A DNA stretch of 64,000 nt. It comes from a virus. Positions 3,919-56,884 of this stretch are shown piece after piece. Both the position numbers and the translations under genes were made by a program. The notes under the pieces were generated by a model. The model searched no databases, was not told the DNA's origin, and saw only the letters and a program-made list of their open reading frames with translations. The stretch is from IMG/VR virus record IMGVR_UViG_3300042545_001134, positions 56,600 to 120,599 of that record; one strand, 5' to 3'. Within the stretch, counting starts at the first letter, position 1. Every line of letters begins with the position of its first letter.

Positions 3919-4153
3919 ATTTTAGGACCGATATAACGATATCCATAGTATACATTTCCAGGAAATTTAAATTTATGTCCTTACTTCACACAAGGTACAA
4001 TCCCAGGGTAAATGTCACTGAGTGGTAAAAAGTGGGGGAAAGTGGCATTGTAATACGCCCAGCCCAAAAACCGGTCATTTTGACCTGACAAAAGTAGGGG
4101 ATTTTCGTTACGACAAAAAATGTCTGGATAGTAGGGTTAAAAACGGGGTTTTT

Positions 4154-4498
4154 TTAGGGGTTATTTTTAGAATCATAAACCAATGGTTCCTCACATACCG
4201 GACACTCATCCAGTACAATCATATTGTTCCTGCGGAACGACCAACGTTCCACGGTAGGTAATTCATCTACTGTAAGAACCGTATAACCATCCATACATTT
4301 TACTTCACCATCTATATCATAGTACCTACCTTTATACCTTGTTACTATATGGTTTTTTCTTTGAGAAATATATGGGGTACAATCTTTATACATCTTCTTT
4401 AGTAGGATATGAAACCTATAACATCCTCCTTCGGTATAGATGTATCTTATGTACCCATCTGTATTTCTCAGTTCATCTATGAATGTTAGTATATTCAT
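4154..4498 (-). CDS. Hypothetical Cys-containing protein (114 aa)
   Basis: ORF-track frame with C-terminal CPVCEEP, a possible zinc-ribbon half-site. Confidence 0.4.
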   Translation of the reverse strand: MNILTFIDELRNTDGYIRYIYTEGGCYRFHILLKKMYKDCTPYISQRKNHIVTRYKGRYYDIDGEVKCMDGYTVLTVDELPTVERWSFRRNNMIVLDECPVCEEPLVYDSKNNP

Positions 4499-4519
4499 TT
4501 TATACTTTATGGTATTATA

Positions 4520-4804
4520 CTATATGGTATTATTGGAATCAACTATCCTTCTATACAATTCATGTTGTAATCTATAAGTCTCTAATCTTTGTTGTTCTTC
4601 ATTAATAGTTATGGTATTATTCTCAATTGGATTGTGTCTTCTTCTATATCGTTCATGACGTATTCTATAACTTTCTTCTTCTGCCTCTATACCATACCTT
4701 AACGTATCTCTTATTCTTCTTCTTACAGATTCTTCTAATTCATTGGGATATACTTCTATTATACTATTATCAATATATCCCCTGCCAAGTTTAAAATTGT
4801 TCAT
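4520..4804 (-). CDS. Small hypothetical protein, MNNFKLGRGY family (94 aa)
   Basis: Shares its N-terminus MNNFKLGRGY and ~37 bp of start-region DNA with the next ORF. Confidence 0.45.
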   Translation of the reverse strand: MNNFKLGRGYIDNSIIEVYPNELEESVRRRIRDTLRYGIEAEEESYRIRHERYRRRHNPIENNTITINEEQQRLETYRLQHELYRRIVDSNNTI

Positions 4805-4813
4805 ATATATGGT

Positions 4814-5116
4814 TTAAGACATAAGACTGTCTATTATTTTATCCTGTAATTCAAATATACTATCCATGTTGATATTATCATAATTCAATTCCTCCATAAC
4901 GTATTCTGCCCAAACAATATAGTGGGTAAACGTGAGATTATCCTTTATTGATACAATATCCGTGGCAACCCTATTAAACCCCTCATATTTTATCTCAATA
5001 CGGATTGTGGTTTCATCTATATGATATAGTATTATCGATAACCCATATTGGGATATGATTTTGGTATTATATCCCCTGCCAAGTTTAAAGTTGTTCATAT
5101 ATATGGATTTCTTCAA
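4814..5116 (-). CDS. Small hypothetical protein, MNNFKLGRGY family (100 aa)
   Basis: Tandem paralogue of 4520-4804. The duplicated start region is tatcccctgccaagtttaaa(a/g)ttgttcatatatatgg. Confidence 0.45.
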   Translation of the reverse strand: MKKSIYMNNFKLGRGYNTKIISQYGLSIILYHIDETTIRIEIKYEGFNRVATDIVSIKDNLTFTHYIVWAEYVMEELNYDNINMDSIFELQDKIIDSLMS

Positions 5117-5195
5117 TTTATAGGTTTTAACCCCCTCGATTTTATATCTACACCATAAACAACGTAGAGATACTTATATTATAAAAGTAATCACA

Positions 5196-5273
5196 GTTGT
5201 ATATACCTTTCAAATTGTGATTATAAACAACTGCAGAACAAATATCAACCTGTGTAGAACAGTTGTATACACC
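5196..5273 (-). CRISPR. Solo repeat-spacer unit: degenerate 36-nt repeat, 30-nt spacer, 12-nt partial repeat fused to scaffold A
   Basis: 5196-5231 gttgtatatacctttcaaattgtgattataaacaac vs array consensus gttgtatacacctttcaaataagaggtatttacaac. Spacer is 5232-5261. 5262-5273 gttgtatacacc is the repeat 5' end. Confidence 0.7.
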
Positions 5274-5390
5274 AATAAAAAGTATTTAGTGAGTGGGTTA
5301 TTACCCCGAGATTATCTCCTCCTGTTTATTCAGGGAATCACTATGGGTTGTACAACCAACCCCATCACTTGTGGTGATGAAAATATCTTG
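5274..5390 (-). ncRNA. Conserved omega-RNA/tracrRNA-like scaffold, copy A, overlapping the 3' end of the nuclease CDS
   Basis: About 85% identical to 7151-7273 in its conserved blocks. Contains hairpins CCTG-tttatt-CAGG and GGGTTG-tacaac-CAACCC, the latter with a compensatory change in copy B. The strand is inferred. Confidence 0.65.
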
Positions 5391-6728
5391 TTTTTTCTGT
5401 AGACCTTTTAATAGTCTACCTTTCTTACTCTTACCTTTTACTTCGTTACCTTCAGCGTAAGTTATATTATATGCCCCAACAATATCGGCATCCTTTAGTT
5501 TACCGTAATCGTCACACTCAATGTTAATACAGGTGAATTTGGTTTTATCCTTATCCTTTCTATTCTCCTTATCCACATTCTTACAAGTTGGACATGTAAT
5601 AGATGTATCTTTTGGATTCACCCACAGGATTTGAATCCCCACCATCTTTGCTTTATATTCAATATCCGTTTGAAGTTGATAATATGCCCACGATTTTAAA
5701 AACAAATCTTTAGTGTTTGTGGTTATACCAGTTAAGTCCTCCATCTTAATAATACCCACATTGTATTGTTGGGCAATATCAATAACATCCCTACTGATAT
5801 CGTGATTCATTAACACGGACCAATTGTGTTCCTTTTCCTTTAATCTTTCCATTCCCAACATCTTTCTTGTTCTTCCATGTCCACCCTTGGCAAACTTCAT
5901 GGATTGTTGAAGTGCTCTTCGTATCTTATAGAACTTCATTCTCTCAGTTTGAATCTTTTCACCGATTGAAATCTGTGATGGTTGATGTTTCTCCCCGTCA
6001 ATGTATATTGATACTGGTCTGTTTATACCCAAATCAATTCCCATTACCTTATCAGGAATCATATCCTTTGATTTTGTATCAGGTACTGTACATGTTAATA
6101 ATAAAATAAAATCTTCATCCTTAATTTGAATAGAACTGGTGTTCATTTTGTATTCACCATTCAATATTCTATTGACAATTTTTTCATTACCACTTCTATC
6201 CCTTCCGTAATGTAATTTGAATTTAATTCCTTTGTGAATACTTCTCTCTGATGACGATAATGGTAAGTTAAAAACATAATCCTCCCCTTCTTTACTCACC
6301 ACAGGTTCTTTATTTACCGTACCTTTAAATGGTATTGTTAATGATGTTTTTCTAAATGATGGTATTGACATCTTTCCTTGTAAAATATCATAAAAACTCT
6401 CATCAATAGTTTTATATATCTTTTGACAAAACGACGATTTTATGTTCGATGATATGATGGTATTTTTCTTCATTAAGTTATAACCCATATTCTCCACCAT
6501 CGCCCCGTATTTTTCCTTGAAAATCTCTTTTGATTTAACTTTAGTAATATTAGTTGAATTTTTTATCTCATCCAACTCGTACTGGTTACAAACAGTTAAC
6601 CTAATAACTTCGTTTCCAATTTGAACCAAGTCAGATGCAATTCTTTTTACGTAATTGTACGATGCAGTTCTGTCCTTGCTGGTTTCACCAACCGCAATCA
6701 ATTTGATTTTTCTTGTGATTATTGACAT
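5301..6728 (-). CDS. TnpB/Cas12-like RNA-guided RuvC endonuclease (475 aa)
   Basis: RuvC-I GIDLGINRP, RuvC-II IIKMEDLTG, YKAKMVGIQILWVNPKDTSITCPTC..CINIEC zinc finger, RuvC-III DADIVGAYNI. This is the canonical TnpB/type V order. Confidence 0.85.
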   Translation of the reverse strand: MSIITRKIKLIAVGETSKDRTASYNYVKRIASDLVQIGNEVIRLTVCNQYELDEIKNSTNITKVKSKEIFKEKYGAMVENMGYNLMKKNTIISSNIKSSFCQKIYKTIDESFYDILQGKMSIPSFRKTSLTIPFKGTVNKEPVVSKEGEDYVFNLPLSSSERSIHKGIKFKLHYGRDRSGNEKIVNRILNGEYKMNTSSIQIKDEDFILLLTCTVPDTKSKDMIPDKVMGIDLGINRPVSIYIDGEKHQPSQISIGEKIQTERMKFYKIRRALQQSMKFAKGGHGRTRKMLGMERLKEKEHNWSVLMNHDISRDVIDIAQQYNVGIIKMEDLTGITTNTKDLFLKSWAYYQLQTDIEYKAKMVGIQILWVNPKDTSITCPTCKNVDKENRKDKDKTKFTCINIECDDYGKLKDADIVGAYNITYAEGNEVKGKSKKGRLLKGLQKKQDIFITTSDGVGCTTHSDSLNKQEEIISG

Positions 6729-6753
6729 ATCATGTTCTATTTTATGTTCATCG

Positions 6754-7093
6754 TTATATTAAAAACTTCAAGTAAGAGGTATTTACAACATAAATCCCAT
6801 TAGTTCGTATGGGTTCGTAGTTGTATACACCTTTCAAATAAGAGGTATTTACAACGTACTTGATGACCTGCAACAGGTCCATCAGTTGTATACACCTTTC
6901 AAATAAGAGAAACCCAAAGTACATGTTGTATACACCTTTCAAATAAGAGGTATTTACAACGTTTTCTCTTTCCCATGAGGTGCATCACCTGTTGTATACA
7001 CCTTTCAAATAAGAGGCATTTACAACTATTAACGGATGTACCAAAAATTAACATATAGTTGTATACACCTTTCAAATAAGAGGCATTTACAAC
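6754..7093 (-). CRISPR. CRISPR-like array of 36-bp repeats and 29-31-bp spacers
   Basis: Repeat GTTGTATACACCTTTCAAATAAGAGG(T/C)ATTTACAAC at 6820, 6925, 6991, 7058. Truncated copy at 6885-6910 and degenerate copy at 6754-6789. Spacers are unique. Array lies 25 nt upstream of the nuclease start codon. Confidence 0.85.
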
Positions 7094-7126
7094 ATGGTTA
7101 ACCCCATCTTATTATGAATCAACATA

Positions 7127-7273
7127 TTGTGAATGATTCCCTTATTAAAAAATAAAAGGTATTTAGTGAGTGAGAAGTTAATCTCCAGAAAAATTCCATC
7201 CTGTTTATTCAGGATTCACTATGGGCTGTACAACCAGCCCCACCAAAGTTTTACCTCTGATGAAAATATATTG
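7127..7273 (-). ncRNA. Conserved omega-RNA/tracrRNA-like scaffold, copy B, with a degenerate repeat at its array-proximal end
   Basis: Blocks AATAAAAGGTATTTAGTGAGTG and CCTGTTTATTCAGG..TCACTATGGGCTGTACAACCAGCCCCA..TGATGAAAATAT shared with copy A. An AT-rich promoter-like region follows at 7274-7340. Confidence 0.65.
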
Positions 7274-7465
7274 AAGTTTCCAATATTTCAAAGAACAATA
7301 CAAAGATACGTGTATTTTTTAGATATCCAAATTTTTTTTTAAAAATATTTTTTTATTCATCATCCTCCAACGAATCACTGTATGTGGGTTTATCCTTTGG
7401 GACATAGTCCTCATCACAATTATCAATATGGTCCTCGTCGTTCATAATAGATTTATTTTAAATAA

Positions 7466-7761
7466 CACCCTGATTTATCCAACTTACAGGTGTCGTGGCT
7501 GTCCCCGTTACCGGGTTAGAAATAGACTTTTGGATAGATAGTCAATCTAAATAGAGCCTTTCCCTATCAGAAGTTCCATATGGTTATCACACCACTTCTC
7601 ATCGTATTGGACATACTATCCGGTGATTAACCGAATCGCGTAGTCAGGACAGGAATCGAACCTATAACCAGTTTTCTAAGCCCTACGTGCAGGATTTTCA
7701 CTGCCTCGTACTGGTGTCTAATCGAGCATACACAGCGTTTAACCAATTCCGCCACCTGACT
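7466..7761. repeat. Segmental duplication, copy 1 (tRNA-like gene plus ~170 nt flank)
   Basis: 7580-7761 is near-identical to 9325-9506. 7466-7580 is about 70% similar to 9205-9325. Confidence 0.7.
7641..7761 (-). tRNA. tRNA-like element, atypically long (121 nt)
   Basis: Minus strand reads AGTCAGG..GGCG-GAATTGGTTAAA-CGCT (D-arm with GG)..ATAGG-TTCGATT-CCTGT (T-arm)..CCTGACT-A. The anticodon arm is not canonical by eye. Confidence 0.45.
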
Positions 7762-7949
7762 ATTAGCGTTCTATTAAAAATGGAAGTTATTGCGCCTATA
7801 CCATTTCGTTGATACCACCAATATGGCGTTCATTTTATTCCATTGTTCAAGTTTTGTGAACATTTTCAAATATAGATTTTTATTCCATCATTGCGCCTAT
7901 TTTTCTTGCTTTGCGCCTATTTTTTCCACCATAAGGCTAAAATTAGAAA

Positions 7950-8189
7950 TTATTTTCCAAATGTTTCGTTGTAGTATTGTTGAGAGCCAATTACATATTC
8001 ATCTGAAATGCCAAATTTGTAAGCATTCATTATCTCCTGCTTGTGCATTTCTTTGGCTTCGTCAACATCCACTAAAAAATTATCTATCATTGTTGTTCTA
8101 ACAATTCCATCTGGTTCAGATTCTATTATTAAAATTCTTCGTTTCAATTCAGATATTAACCATTCTATACTGCTTTTTTGTTTTTCCAT
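7950..8189 (-). CDS. Small hypothetical protein (79 aa), YYNETFGK-tail family
   Basis: C-terminus YYNETFGK shared with 8326-8544. Conserved upstream motif. Confidence 0.45.
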   Translation of the reverse strand: MEKQKSSIEWLISELKRRILIIESEPDGIVRTTMIDNFLVDVDEAKEMHKQEIMNAYKFGISDEYVIGSQQYYNETFGK

Positions 8190-8325
8190 TTTATTTGTTG
8201 TTTAAATGTTTTCTATTTCTTTTTTAATTCTTCATAAATACCACCTAAAATAATCATTATGATTAGTTGTATAAATGTAGTTACCCAATAATAAGCGTGT
8301 TCCATAAGTTTTTTTGTTATTTAAG

Positions 8326-8544
8326 TTATTTTCCAAATGTTTCGTTGTAGTATTTTTCTGCTGTTTCGTATGGCTTATCTCTAAAATGCCACGATTGATT
8401 ATAGCAATTGATGATTTGTTGCTTCTCCATTTCTTTGGCTTGTAAAAGAATATCTTTATACATTTTCCTTAATTCTTCTGAATCAAAAGATACTAATCCT
8501 AATAATTTTAATTCAATAAATCTTACTGCTGTTTGTTTTTTCAT
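8326..8544 (-). CDS. Small hypothetical protein (72 aa), YYNETFGK-tail family
   Basis: Paralogue of 7950-8189. Confidence 0.45.
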   Translation of the reverse strand: MKKQTAVRFIELKLLGLVSFDSEELRKMYKDILLQAKEMEKQQIINCYNQSWHFRDKPYETAEKYYNETFGK

Positions 8545-8933
8545 TTTGTTTGTTGTTTAAGTTTTACAATCTCAATCAGTTTTTTAATACACTCAAGCTC
8601 TGCTTCTTTATAAGTACCATTAAATTTTAAAGGTTCAGTTCCACATAGTCTATTCCATTTATCATTAATAATTAGATAAGAAAACTCTTGAGTACCAACT
8701 TCAATTAATCCTGTTAATCTATATTCTTCTCTAAACCATCTAAATACTTGTTGGTAAATTGGGGCTTTAATAAGATTCTTTTCTAATAAATTAGAATCAA
8801 ACATTTGTATTAGTATTTCACCAGTTGGCTCTTCCCATTCGGTAACAATACAATATCTACCAAAACAAGGTTCATCAAATCCTAATTCTTTTAAAGCTAA
8901 TGCTTCTTGGTATGGCATAAATTCTTTTTCCAT
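8541..8933 (-). CDS. Hypothetical protein (130 aa)
   Basis: ORF-track frame. Shares the same conserved upstream sequence as the two preceding genes. Confidence 0.45.
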   Translation of the reverse strand: MEKEFMPYQEALALKELGFDEPCFGRYCIVTEWEEPTGEILIQMFDSNLLEKNLIKAPIYQQVFRWFREEYRLTGLIEVGTQEFSYLIINDKWNRLCGTEPLKFNGTYKEAELECIKKLIEIVKLKQQTK

Positions 8934-9122
8934 TTTGTTTGTTGTTTAAGTTATATAATTTGTTAAATGTTTTTTTGGTGCTTGTTAAATGTTTGTATAA
9001 ATTTTTAGTAACGTTTCATGCACTTTGTCCAGTTAATTCATTAAAAGACTGGACATTACACGCCTTTAAATGCTTAAGCCTATTGGCTTTTGTTAATTGT
9101 ACCTATGGTACTTTGTTAATTG

Positions 9123-55786: not shown

Positions 55787-56884
55787 ATGGAGTACGATTA
55801 TCTAATAGTTGGTGCCGGTTTCTTCGGTTCCATATGTGCCCACGAATTAACTAAGTCAGGTAAAAAAGTTTTAGTTATTGATTCAAGAGAACACATCGGT
55901 GGCAATTGTTACACCGAGAATAAAGATGGTATCAATGTTCAAGTATACGGTGCACACATCTTCCACACATCAAACAAAGAAGTGTGGGATTGGATTAACC
56001 AATTCGCTGAGTTTAACAACTATAGACACCATGTGATTGCCAACTACAAAGAAGAATTATATTCACTTCCTTTTAGTATGTGGACATTCAATAAACTGTG
56101 GGGAGTTAAGACACCTCAACAGGCGAAAGATATGATTGCAGAACAATCAAATGATATTGAAGAACCGAGCAACTTAGAAGAACAGGCAATCAAACTTGTA
56201 GGTAAGGATGTTTATGAAAAACTCATTAAGGGTTATACTCATAAACAATGGATGAAAGACCCCAAGGAATTACCAAAGGAAATCATTAAGAGGTTACCAG
56301 TTCGTTTTACCTATGACAACAATTATTTCTTTGACAAATATCAAGGTATCCCAATTGGTGGTTACACTCAGATTTTTGAAAAGTTATTAGAGGGAGTTGA
56401 GGTTAGATTGGGTGTGGATTATTTTAAAGGTAGTTTACCTAAACATAACAAAGTAATATTCACAGGACCAATCGATAAGTTCTTCGGTTACAAGTACGGT
56501 AAGTTAGAATACAAAACAGTTAGTTTCGAACACCAGTATTATAGTTCACCAAACCTTCAGGGTGTCCCTGTAATGAACTATACTGATGTGGATGTACCAT
56601 TCACTCGTATCATTGAACATAAACACTTTGAGGGTTTAGAAACGAATGGCTCGTGGATTACATATGAATACCCACAAGAGTATGTGGCAGATAAAACTGA
56701 CCCATATTATCCTGTGAACGATAAAGAGAACAATGAAATGTTTTCAAAATATAAAGAAGAGGCGGAGAAAGTTAAGGATTGTGTATTGTTTGGTGGAAGA
56801 CTTGGTGAATACAAATACTATGACATGCATCAGGTTGTCGAATCAGCACTAAACTTTATTAAAAAGGAAATCGATGGAAATTAG
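55787..56884 (+). CDS. glf: UDP-galactopyranose mutase
   Basis: YDYLIVGAGFFGS..IGGNCYTE..YGAHIFHTSNKEVWDW..LPFSMWTF..IKRLPVRFTYDNNYF..IIEHKHFE..YYPVND..GRLGEYKYYDMHQVV tracks E. coli Glf end to end. Confidence 0.85.
   Translation: MEYDYLIVGAGFFGSICAHELTKSGKKVLVIDSREHIGGNCYTENKDGINVQVYGAHIFHTSNKEVWDWINQFAEFNNYRHHVIANYKEELYSLPFSMWTFNKLWGVKTPQQAKDMIAEQSNDIEEPSNLEEQAIKLVGKDVYEKLIKGYTHKQWMKDPKELPKEIIKRLPVRFTYDNNYFFDKYQGIPIGGYTQIFEKLLEGVEVRLGVDYFKGSLPKHNKVIFTGPIDKFFGYKYGKLEYKTVSFEHQYYSSPNLQGVPVMNYTDVDVPFTRIIEHKHFEGLETNGSWITYEYPQEYVADKTDPYYPVNDKENNEMFSKYKEEAEKVKDCVLFGGRLGEYKYYDMHQVVESALNFIKKEIDGN

Follow-up and report, generated by a model that had tools for sequence, protein, structure and literature searches.

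A candidate natural single-guide RNA module downstream of a phage-borne type V-F-like cas12f gene

[quoted passage not shown] Stem 5 of the Cas12f sgRNAs is the repeat:anti-repeat duplex (PMC12255294), and a pseudoknot with the 3' end of the repeat is general among Cas12 tracrRNAs (10.1101/2025.01.20.633832). Altae-Tran et al. 2023 (PMC10691335) described active ‘Cas12f1 and V-U40-43’ nucleases with CRISPR-like arrays, the long repeats of which resemble omega-RNA arrays, and for the RpoE-linked branch gave an order of events in which the array is minimized to a half repeat near the tracrRNA, fusion re-creates an omega-RNA, and the fused unit is then duplicated. The experiments of Hoffmann et al. 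2026 (PMC13472631) show that dCas12f uses chimeric single guides, which at one locus resemble nearby CRISPR repeats. The single-guide layout is, in outline, already described for this Cas12f branch. Here we analyze a 64-kb stretch of viral DNA (positions 56,600 to 120,599 of the IMG/VR record IMGVR_UViG_3300042545_001134; hereafter, the window) that carries a cas12f-type gene on the minus strand, referred to throughout as the gene strand. On this strand, the gene is followed by a tracrRNA-like scaffold (copy A), a half repeat, a 30-nt spacer and a 36-nt repeat, whereas a second scaffold (copy B) and a multi-spacer array are located on the other side of the gene. We consider it probable that the downstream region belongs to a type V-F-like CRISPR-Cas12f locus that is carried by a phage and encodes a competent nuclease, and that it constitutes the guide module of this locus, in which a natural fusion of tracrRNA and CRISPR RNA (crRNA) is combined with a one-spacer array.

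The individual elements of the module are readily recognizable. Read on the + strand, positions 5262-5273 are GTTGTATACACC, the same 12 nt with which the array repeat begins, exactly as the original prediction, made from the bare sequence, had it. Allowing for at most one mismatch, there are 8 copies of this 12-mer in the 64 kb where 0.47 would be expected, and 7 of the 8 are inside the Cas12f locus. The repeat at 5196-5231 is identical to the array consensus at 27 of the 36 positions (25 had been predicted), a value attained by none of 200 Markov-simulated 64-kb sequences, the highest of which reached 26. The gap between this repeat and the 12-mer is exactly 30 nt, and the spacer that fills it, predicted to be unique, indeed occurs only once across the window and all fetched related loci (denoted below by L-numbers; 188 of these, together with the window, were searched for spacer matches). 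Scaffold copies A and B can be aligned over ~125 nt, and the final ~32 nt of the scaffold are homologous to the whole array repeat. Thus, the predicted homology of the scaffold terminus to the repeat, the minus-strand order of scaffold, repeat-derived terminal hairpin and 30-nt guide, and the second scaffold copy at the head of the multi-spacer array are all borne out.

The evidence that carries the single-guide interpretation comes from the junction between the scaffold and the half repeat. We aligned 33 distinct fused units from clades at 38-95% protein identity; in these, the scaffold ends in ...CACUCAC(Y), followed by the anti-repeat AAAUAC(Y), a loop that varies in length, the half repeat (R)GUAUAUACAA(Y) and variable sequence. 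The pairs of a structure that we specified, with a pseudoknot, were counted in this alignment: 94% of the cells are paired compared with 82% in shuffles, none of 500 of which reached the observed value, and with 30-51% in slid controls; the covariation score is 0.354 versus 0.159. The pseudoknot GUUGU:ACAAC, formed by a scaffold hairpin loop with the last 5 bases of the half repeat, is paired in 97.6% of the cells and includes 11 G-C to G-U changes that are compatible with the gene strand only. In the window, the loop GUUGUA can pair with UACAAC, the 3' end of the repeat, and 5 of the 6 stem pairs of its hairpin covary. The anti-repeat is paired with the first 7 bases of the half repeat in 85% of the cells, with one fixed A.A mismatch and with a closing pair that is U-G, U-A or C-G depending on the unit. 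The complementarity in trans covaries as well in L004, where the anti-repeat CAACC corresponds to GGUUG in the repeat and the loop GUUGUG to the repeat end CACAAC; in L142, the loop is GUUGUU and the repeat end AACAAU. The half repeat is kept in cis at the scaffold junction in L001/L109, L107, L108, L110, L111 and L186. Because the guide directly follows the scaffold-fused half repeat, we interpret the unit as a probable natural single guide.

In L083, a Bacteroidaceae Cas12f outgroup (32% identity), a tracrRNA-like region of ~100 nt (4425-4566) is located directly downstream of the gene. Here the tracrRNA is separate and located a short way upstream of the array, on the gene strand, with the hairpin loop GUUGGA complementary to the repeat end UCCAAC and the anti-repeat 12 nt before the first full repeat. 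Given this short distance, pairing in cis with the first repeat may be general in the Cas12f branch of L083.

The scaffold itself shows the hallmarks of a conserved structured RNA. The RNAalifold consensus of 21 scaffolds from the window and its relatives consists of 19 pairs, 12 of which show compensatory changes; copies A and B of the window themselves differ by such a change (GGGUUG/CAACCC versus GGGCUG/CAGCCC). A covariance model built from this alignment (R1) detects 78 scaffold copies in about 50 loci of the family, and scores scaffold A at 103.3 bits (E 1e-26) and scaffold B at 113.5 bits (E 1e-29), both on the minus strand. The minimum-free-energy fold of scaffold A agrees with the comparative helices (z = -2.5). 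Transcription from the + strand, which had been named as an outcome at odds with the original prediction, is ruled out because all 78 scaffold matches are on the gene strand and many of the pairs on that strand are G-U. No Rfam family was found in the 4000-9000 region, two chance-level matches aside.

Table 1. Features of the Cas12f locus in window coordinates.
Feature	Coordinates	Strand	Basis
cas12f-type effector gene, 475 amino acids (aa)	5301..6728	-	Pfam, PADLOC, PDB profile match, 45-sequence alignment
Scaffold copy A, tracrRNA-like structured RNA of ~110 nt overlapping the 3' end of the open reading frame (ORF)	5278..5385	-	Covariance model R1, fold, covariation
Scaffold A hairpin with loop GUUGUA (5351-5356), proposed pseudoknot strand (R:AR-1)	5345..5362	-	Covariation
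Terminal hairpin: anti-repeat AAAUACU (5281-5287) and loop UUUUAUU (5274-5280)	5274..5287	-	Pairing counts
Half repeat GGUGUAUACAAC, in cis fusion with scaffold A	5262..5273	-	Exact match to the end of the array repeat
30-nt spacer, putative guide of the fused unit: UGUUCUACACAGGUUGAUAUUUGUUCUGCA	5232..5261	-	Unique sequence
Terminal 36-nt repeat, second repeat type: GUUGUUUAUAAUCACAAUUUGAAAGGUAUAUACAAC	5196..5231	-	Repeat-family search; identity to L107
Main CRISPR array, read 7093 to 6754	6754..7093	-	Repeat search, direct reading
Leader-like conserved segment of ~60 nt between scaffold B and the first repeat; U-rich start, degenerate ...UUCACAAU motif	7094..7154	-	Conservation
Scaffold copy B, tracrRNA-like, heads the main array	7155..7268	-	Covariance model R1
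Candidate Bacteroidota-type promoter: -33 TTTG (7328-7331), 19-nt spacer, -7 TATCTTTG (7301-7308)	7301..7331	-	Direct reading, inference

The relatives of this locus come from IMG/VR viral contigs of 29-246 kb and from freshwater and marine metagenomes, with one in a Flavobacteriaceae metagenome-assembled genome. Among the 32 loci with at least 700 nt of flanking sequence on each side of the gene, the scaffold is present on both sides in 9, only upstream in 9 and only downstream in 14, and 6 of the 32 contain 2-4 tandem downstream scaffold-guide cassettes; altogether, tandem units (2-4) were detected in L124, L128, L132, L133, L136, L138 and L141. In marine relatives (45-50% identity), 3-4 tandem cassettes are spaced 190-460 nt apart (L132, 1988-3241; L133, 2558-3813; L136, 4353-5264; L138, 4356-4864), with small ORF-like inserts between some of them.

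Within the close clade (75-95% identity: L186, L107, L108, L109/L001, L110 and L111), scaffold A and the half repeat are kept, and the sequence that follows the half repeat is different in each phage: one spacer and a repeat in the window, two spacers in L186, at least two in L107, L110 and L111, truncated units in L108 and a repeat-free sequence in L109. The sequence in the spacer position differs in every close relative. L186, at 95% identity, shares the flanks on both sides with the window and has no spacers in common with it; similarly, the scaffolds of L110 and L111 differ at one base and their downstream spacers are unlike. On the question of whether the unit is conserved or variable, which the original prediction raised, the answer is split: the scaffold plus half repeat is retained in most close relatives and the spacer content varies from none to at least two.

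An alternative that has to be weighed against this pattern is decay, whereby the unit, no longer used, would be what is left of a longer downstream array or else the scar of a recombination event, with scaffold A surviving only as a second tracrRNA gene. There is a single spacer, its terminal repeat is of a type unlike array B, no target was found for the spacers in our searches, and eroded versions exist among the relatives, with truncated repeats in L108 and L186, no repeats in L109 and no unit in L106 and L113. However, the window has an intact cis junction, and the 33 distinct units keep this junction, with changes that are compatible with wobble; phages that are 95% identical differ by turnover of the guide position and not by its decay in place; and the terminal repeat closely matches a repeat in use elsewhere and hence is uneroded. 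We consider decay to be unlikely.

The terminal repeat is indeed the recognizable repeat that had been predicted but not a degenerate one. It is 34/36 identical to the repeat of both L107 arrays, compared to the 27/36 identity to the array-B repeat, and the unit does not resemble an eroded copy of array B or a duplicate of the scaffold terminus. L004 likewise has two arrays with differing repeat variants. Given the match to the L107 type and the similarly differing arrays of L004, the unit has the appearance of a cassette for which the shared 3' half repeat served as the point of joining.

The main array contains four full 36-nt repeats (7058, 6991, 6925 and 6820), a 5'-truncated repeat of 25 nt (6885-6909) and a degenerate last repeat (6754-6789), which delimit five spacers of 31, 30, 15, 29 and 30 nt. 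Similar irregular units, with 5'-truncated repeats of 13-25 nt that consist of the 3' half only and with spacers of 15-25 nt, were observed at 6885-6924 of the window and in L001 (2800-2860), L002 (2829-2950) and L133 (2660-2750). Such units are unlike the products of Cas1-Cas2 integration and may stem from recombination at half repeats or from some other route of guide capture.

Across L108, L109 and L186, the segment between scaffold B and the first repeat differs by one mismatch and one gap, whereas the true spacers differ at these loci. The 32 nt between the UUCACAAU motif and the first repeat are conserved (window, 7094-7125; L108, 2408-2438; L109, 2136-2166; L186, about 2001-2032), and their sole IMG/VR match is at a homologous locus. 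These 32 nt after scaffold B could be either a leader or a fixed guide, and we treat them as leader-like. The possibility of a fixed guide bears on a further explanation of the module, namely, that its single guide serves not defense but a fixed function, regulatory or in homing; autoregulation of the kind known for the long-form Cas9 tracrRNA would be an example, as would a role like that of the atypical crRNA of CRISPR-associated transposons. Natural single guides with regulatory functions are known, including the chimeric guide RNAs of dCas12f-sigmaE (PMC13472631), and the 32-nt segment is a possible guide of this kind. The guide of scaffold A, in contrast, differs in every relative and has no other match in the window, and the active site of the nuclease is intact, which makes a fixed function highly improbable.

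Just before scaffold B, there is a TAnnTTTG box with TTTG 19 nt upstream, a pair that we take to be the Bacteroidota promoter consensus; the TAnnTTTG box is also found upstream of the scaffold in L002, L003, L081 and L186. No such box precedes scaffold A, so that this scaffold is presumably matured from the cas12f transcript. On the upstream side, the promoter region of scaffold B adjoins a candidate tRNA-Gly(GCC) gene (7640-7761, minus strand) with a 32-nt intron in the anticodon loop; it was reported by ARAGORN with introns allowed, whereas the default search gave no tRNA, and there is no Rfam tRNA match at this position.

The assignment of the effector itself is straightforward. The ORF contains a Pfam Cas12f1-like_TNB domain (1.4e-14), and PADLOC identifies the protein as Cas12u3 (9.3e-82) or Cas12f (1.4e-80). 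A profile of 45 relatives, compared with solved structures, has Alistipes Al3Cas12f (9NZO) as the top match (1e-79), followed by AsCas12f (1e-57); OsCas12f and SpCas12f1 were matched below Al3Cas12f, and the match to the nuclease-dead dCas12f structure 9N9C (1e-33) is weaker than those to the active Cas12f structures. The RuvC residues D232, E330 and D415 and the zinc-finger cysteines C379, C382, C400 and C405 are invariant in an alignment of 45 family members that includes the window protein, and given the intact RuvC triad, the protein is predicted to be nuclease-competent. Thus, the locus displays the traits of Cas12f type V-F, namely, a miniature effector that at 475 aa is within the range of about 400-700 aa and has the D-E-D triad and the four cysteines intact, an adjacent CRISPR array and, in silico, a tracrRNA that has an anti-repeat and forms a pseudoknot with the 3' end of the repeat. 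Type V-F effectors are further characterized by an asymmetric homodimer that shares one guide RNA and by a cleavage of double-stranded DNA that depends on a protospacer-adjacent motif.

The last ~33 codons of the ORF (KKQDIFITTSDGVGCTTHSDSLNKQEEIISG; 5301-5400, minus strand) are read out of scaffold A. In relatives lacking scaffold A, the ORFs stop ~30 residues sooner and the tails are unrelated; the ORFs of L106 and L113, for instance, end about 30 codons earlier than that of the window. Because of these differences, the C-terminal tail of the protein looks like read-through into an RNA gene.

The neighboring genes include one for a phage YunG-like protein, and the window also carries a thymidylate synthase homologue, glycosyltransferases and members of PHROG families. 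The YunG-like gene is found downstream in L110 and L120 as well, and this partial synteny, together with the shared flanks of L186, shows the phage locus to be stable and not a mobile element. No TnpA of the Y1 or serine recombinase kind, and no Cas1, Cas2 or Cas4 domains, were detected in the ORFs within about 5 kb of the locus or among the genes called around L186, and the neighbors within the same distance yielded no matches to the sigma-70 family (rpoE) or to helix-turn-helix (HTH) domains. No second copy of cas12f was seen in the window, and the two scaffold matches in the 64 kb are both at the locus. The status of a transposon is ruled out, given that TnpA is missing within about 5 kb and that the locus is single-copy and syntenic. 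INPHARED contains no records similar to the locus at the DNA level, even in the distant mode. Elsewhere in the window, the 14-mer GATTTTGTTTGGCA occurs 8 times, on the + strand only (447, 737, 2044, 2548, 2594, 2643, 3036 and 3082), mostly in short intergenic gaps ahead of small + strand ORFs, with some copies 46-49 nt apart and with CCTCAGGA about 15 nt upstream of several copies; this element appears to be either a regulatory motif specific to the phage or an array of short repeats.

The original prediction went further and considered the combination of an omega-RNA-like unit with an array to be what one would expect of an intermediate of the TnpB-to-Cas12 transition. Under that scenario, the locus would be a living intermediate, the fused guide a retained ancestral omega-RNA, and the array a product of duplication of the terminal hairpin. 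The positional likeness is real, with the unit on the gene strand, overlapping the 3' end of the ORF and carrying its guide at the 3' end. Moreover, the homology of the scaffold end to the entire repeat, the prevalence of the downstream scaffold (23 of the 32 fully flanked loci, and the most divergent relatives too) and the structure of L109, where the half repeat is followed by non-repeat DNA in omega-RNA fashion, would fit such an ancestry, as would the general mimicry of omega-RNA by Cas12 arrays located downstream of the gene (PMC10691335). However, the protein belongs within the Cas12f clade and, by score, is far from IS200/IS605 TnpB: it fails the NCBIfam model NF038281 IS200_TnpB (33.9 bits against a cut-off of 425) and passes only the broad guided_TnpB subfamily model (147.9 bits against 100). 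Furthermore, there is no TnpA within about 5 kb and no second copy, the locus is syntenic in related phages, the tracrRNA of the outgroups L082 and L083 stands apart, with full repeats coming after it, and in the published phylogeny the fusion of tracrRNA and half repeat is secondary in the clade (PMC10691335). Given the Cas12f placement, the absence of transposon features and the published polarity, the claim of an evolutionary intermediate is unsupported, and we regard it as quite improbable.

Compared with type V-F1, the window has the same kind of small effector with RuvC and a zinc finger, a 36-nt repeat with complementary ends, no cas1, cas2 or cas4 within about 5 kb, and a scaffold of the tracrRNA type, in which the repeat 3' end takes part in a pseudoknot and the repeat:anti-repeat stem is terminal. 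What engineering achieves with a tetraloop, the window unit does naturally, by a join in the genome, and the repeat half that its anti-repeat pairs with is the 3' one, directly beside the pseudoknot strand. The locus further differs from type V-F1 in having two scaffolds (2-4 tandem cassettes in relatives), one of which overlaps the ORF, in being carried by a phage, and in the half-repeat units within its arrays.

With the re-emerged omega-RNA of the dCas12f-sigmaE branch, the locus shares the fusion of the tracrRNA to a half repeat, such that the 3' end of the scaffold is the end of a CRISPR repeat, the duplication of whole scaffold-guide units to reach several target sites, and the association with Bacteroidota. 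It differs in its complete set of catalytic residues, in having no rpoE or HTH partner within about 5 kb, in the coexistence of the fused unit with canonical arrays of 36-nt repeats, and in the spacer length (30 nt versus 14-16 nt). The tandem cassettes of L132, L133, L136 and L138 fit the description of ‘long direct repeats resembling omega-RNA arrays’ (PMC10691335). In the published dCas12f scenario, the fusion occurs after the loss of nuclease activity, whereas here it is found in nuclease-intact phage enzymes.

The parallels with the omega-RNA (reRNA) of IS200/IS605 TnpB are a gene-strand guide RNA that shares sequence with the 3' end of the ORF, has its scaffold before its guide, and probably derives from the nuclease transcript. 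Unlike these elements, the locus has no TnpA within about 5 kb and no transposon ends, is single-copy and syntenic, and encodes a protein much nearer to Cas12f; its guide has a CRISPR repeat as its boundary and shows the turnover of a spacer. Finally, TranC systems (Jin et al. 2025, as presented in PMC13565253 and 10.64898/2026.03.27.714800) are described there as TnpB-like nucleases of compact size, some of them in phages, that have short CRISPR arrays beside them, and share with our locus the concept that omega-RNA and tracrRNA plus crRNA are interconvertible. According to these accounts, the TranC clades are defined by phylogeny and experimental dual-guide use; the window, which we compared with them by description, falls in Cas12f by every profile used.

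Taken with the natural single-guide interpretation, which we favor, these features suggest the following mechanism. Minus-strand transcription, probably from the candidate promoter, would first traverse scaffold B and the array, then cas12f and finally scaffold A. The latter would be the equivalent of a tracrRNA, its 3' anti-repeat covalently linked by a 7-nt loop to the half repeat, the last 5 bases of which would form the Cas12-type pseudoknot with the scaffold hairpin loop. The next 30 nt would serve as the guide, and the resulting natural single-guide RNA would be cut or trimmed from the 3' end of the cas12f transcript. The 36-nt repeat behind the spacer, which makes the unit formally a one-spacer array, may mark or aid the processing of the guide 3' end. 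Scaffold B, or a processed scaffold A, would act as a trans tracrRNA for the crRNAs of the main array, pairing with the 3' half of each repeat. The loaded Cas12f would then cleave guide-matching DNA flanked by a protospacer-adjacent motif, most plausibly, that of competing phages or mobile elements.

The search for targets of the 30-nt spacer, suggested along with the original prediction, came back empty: blastn against 50,697 phage records gave chance-level matches only (E >= 0.9), two exact 20-mers of the spacer had no match in IMG/VR, and blastn-short against the window and the 188 loci recovered only the spacer itself. The array-B spacers also had chance-level matches only in the phage collection, the consensus of two similar L186 spacers had no IMG/VR match, and 319 spacers of the relatives searched against the window and all loci produced nothing significant (the best match, 17/17, with E 0.001 per query). 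In L186, the first downstream spacer (TGAATAATTTGGTTGGCCAACACAGAG) is ~80% identical to a spacer of the upstream array of the same phage (TGAACACTTTGATTGGCAAACACAGAGGA; 2061-2180 and 3968-3994 of L186). The two appear to be variants of one target, and this resemblance suggests that the downstream and upstream modules draw on the same target pool.

Several points weigh against the single-guide interpretation. Within the fused-unit alignment, changes in the pseudoknot and terminal stem are one-sided (wobble) only, double compensatory changes being limited to a few lineages (L004/L123 and L142). The type of the terminal repeat differs from that of the main array, and the unit could have arrived by recombination and perhaps is unused. 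Furthermore, the unit is dispensable: it is missing from L106 (85% identity), L113 (76%) and the L002 clade, so that orthologues without the unit, an observation that the original prediction listed as adverse, do exist in part. Transcript ends and processing are deduced from the DNA, and no protospacer was found for any spacer, so that activity against targets remains a proposal. What the sequences themselves show is which elements are present and on which strand, that the RNA fold, cis junction included, is conserved and covaries, that the catalytic residues are intact, and that guide content turns over among relatives.

A broader scenario is tentative and, in its entirety, rather unlikely. 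Under it, a nuclease-active phage Cas12f would be natively run by genomically fused tracrRNA-crRNA guides derived from the 3' end of its own mRNA and multiplied as tandem cassettes, with guides and half-repeat units turning over without Cas1-Cas2, by a recombination-type capture. The family would then be an active-nuclease bridge between CRISPR and omega-RNA arrays, in which the fusion preceded the loss of nuclease activity on the path to dCas12f-sigmaE.

The noteworthy feature of the locus is the presence of both guide formats, split (tracrRNA plus array) and fused, beside a single nuclease-intact enzyme, along with the irregular half-repeat units. With about fifty natural junction variants on hand, it provides a concrete system for studying the interconversion of omega-RNA-like guides and CRISPR arrays, and suggests that the tracrRNA/half-repeat fusion can occur without prior inactivation of the nuclease, contrary to what has been assumed for dCas12f. 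For a 475-aa editor, the fused units would also be a source of single-guide designs that are compact by nature (~125 nt), and with this family, the viruses that carry a CRISPR effector of their own come to include a phage lineage that is widespread in freshwater and marine settings.

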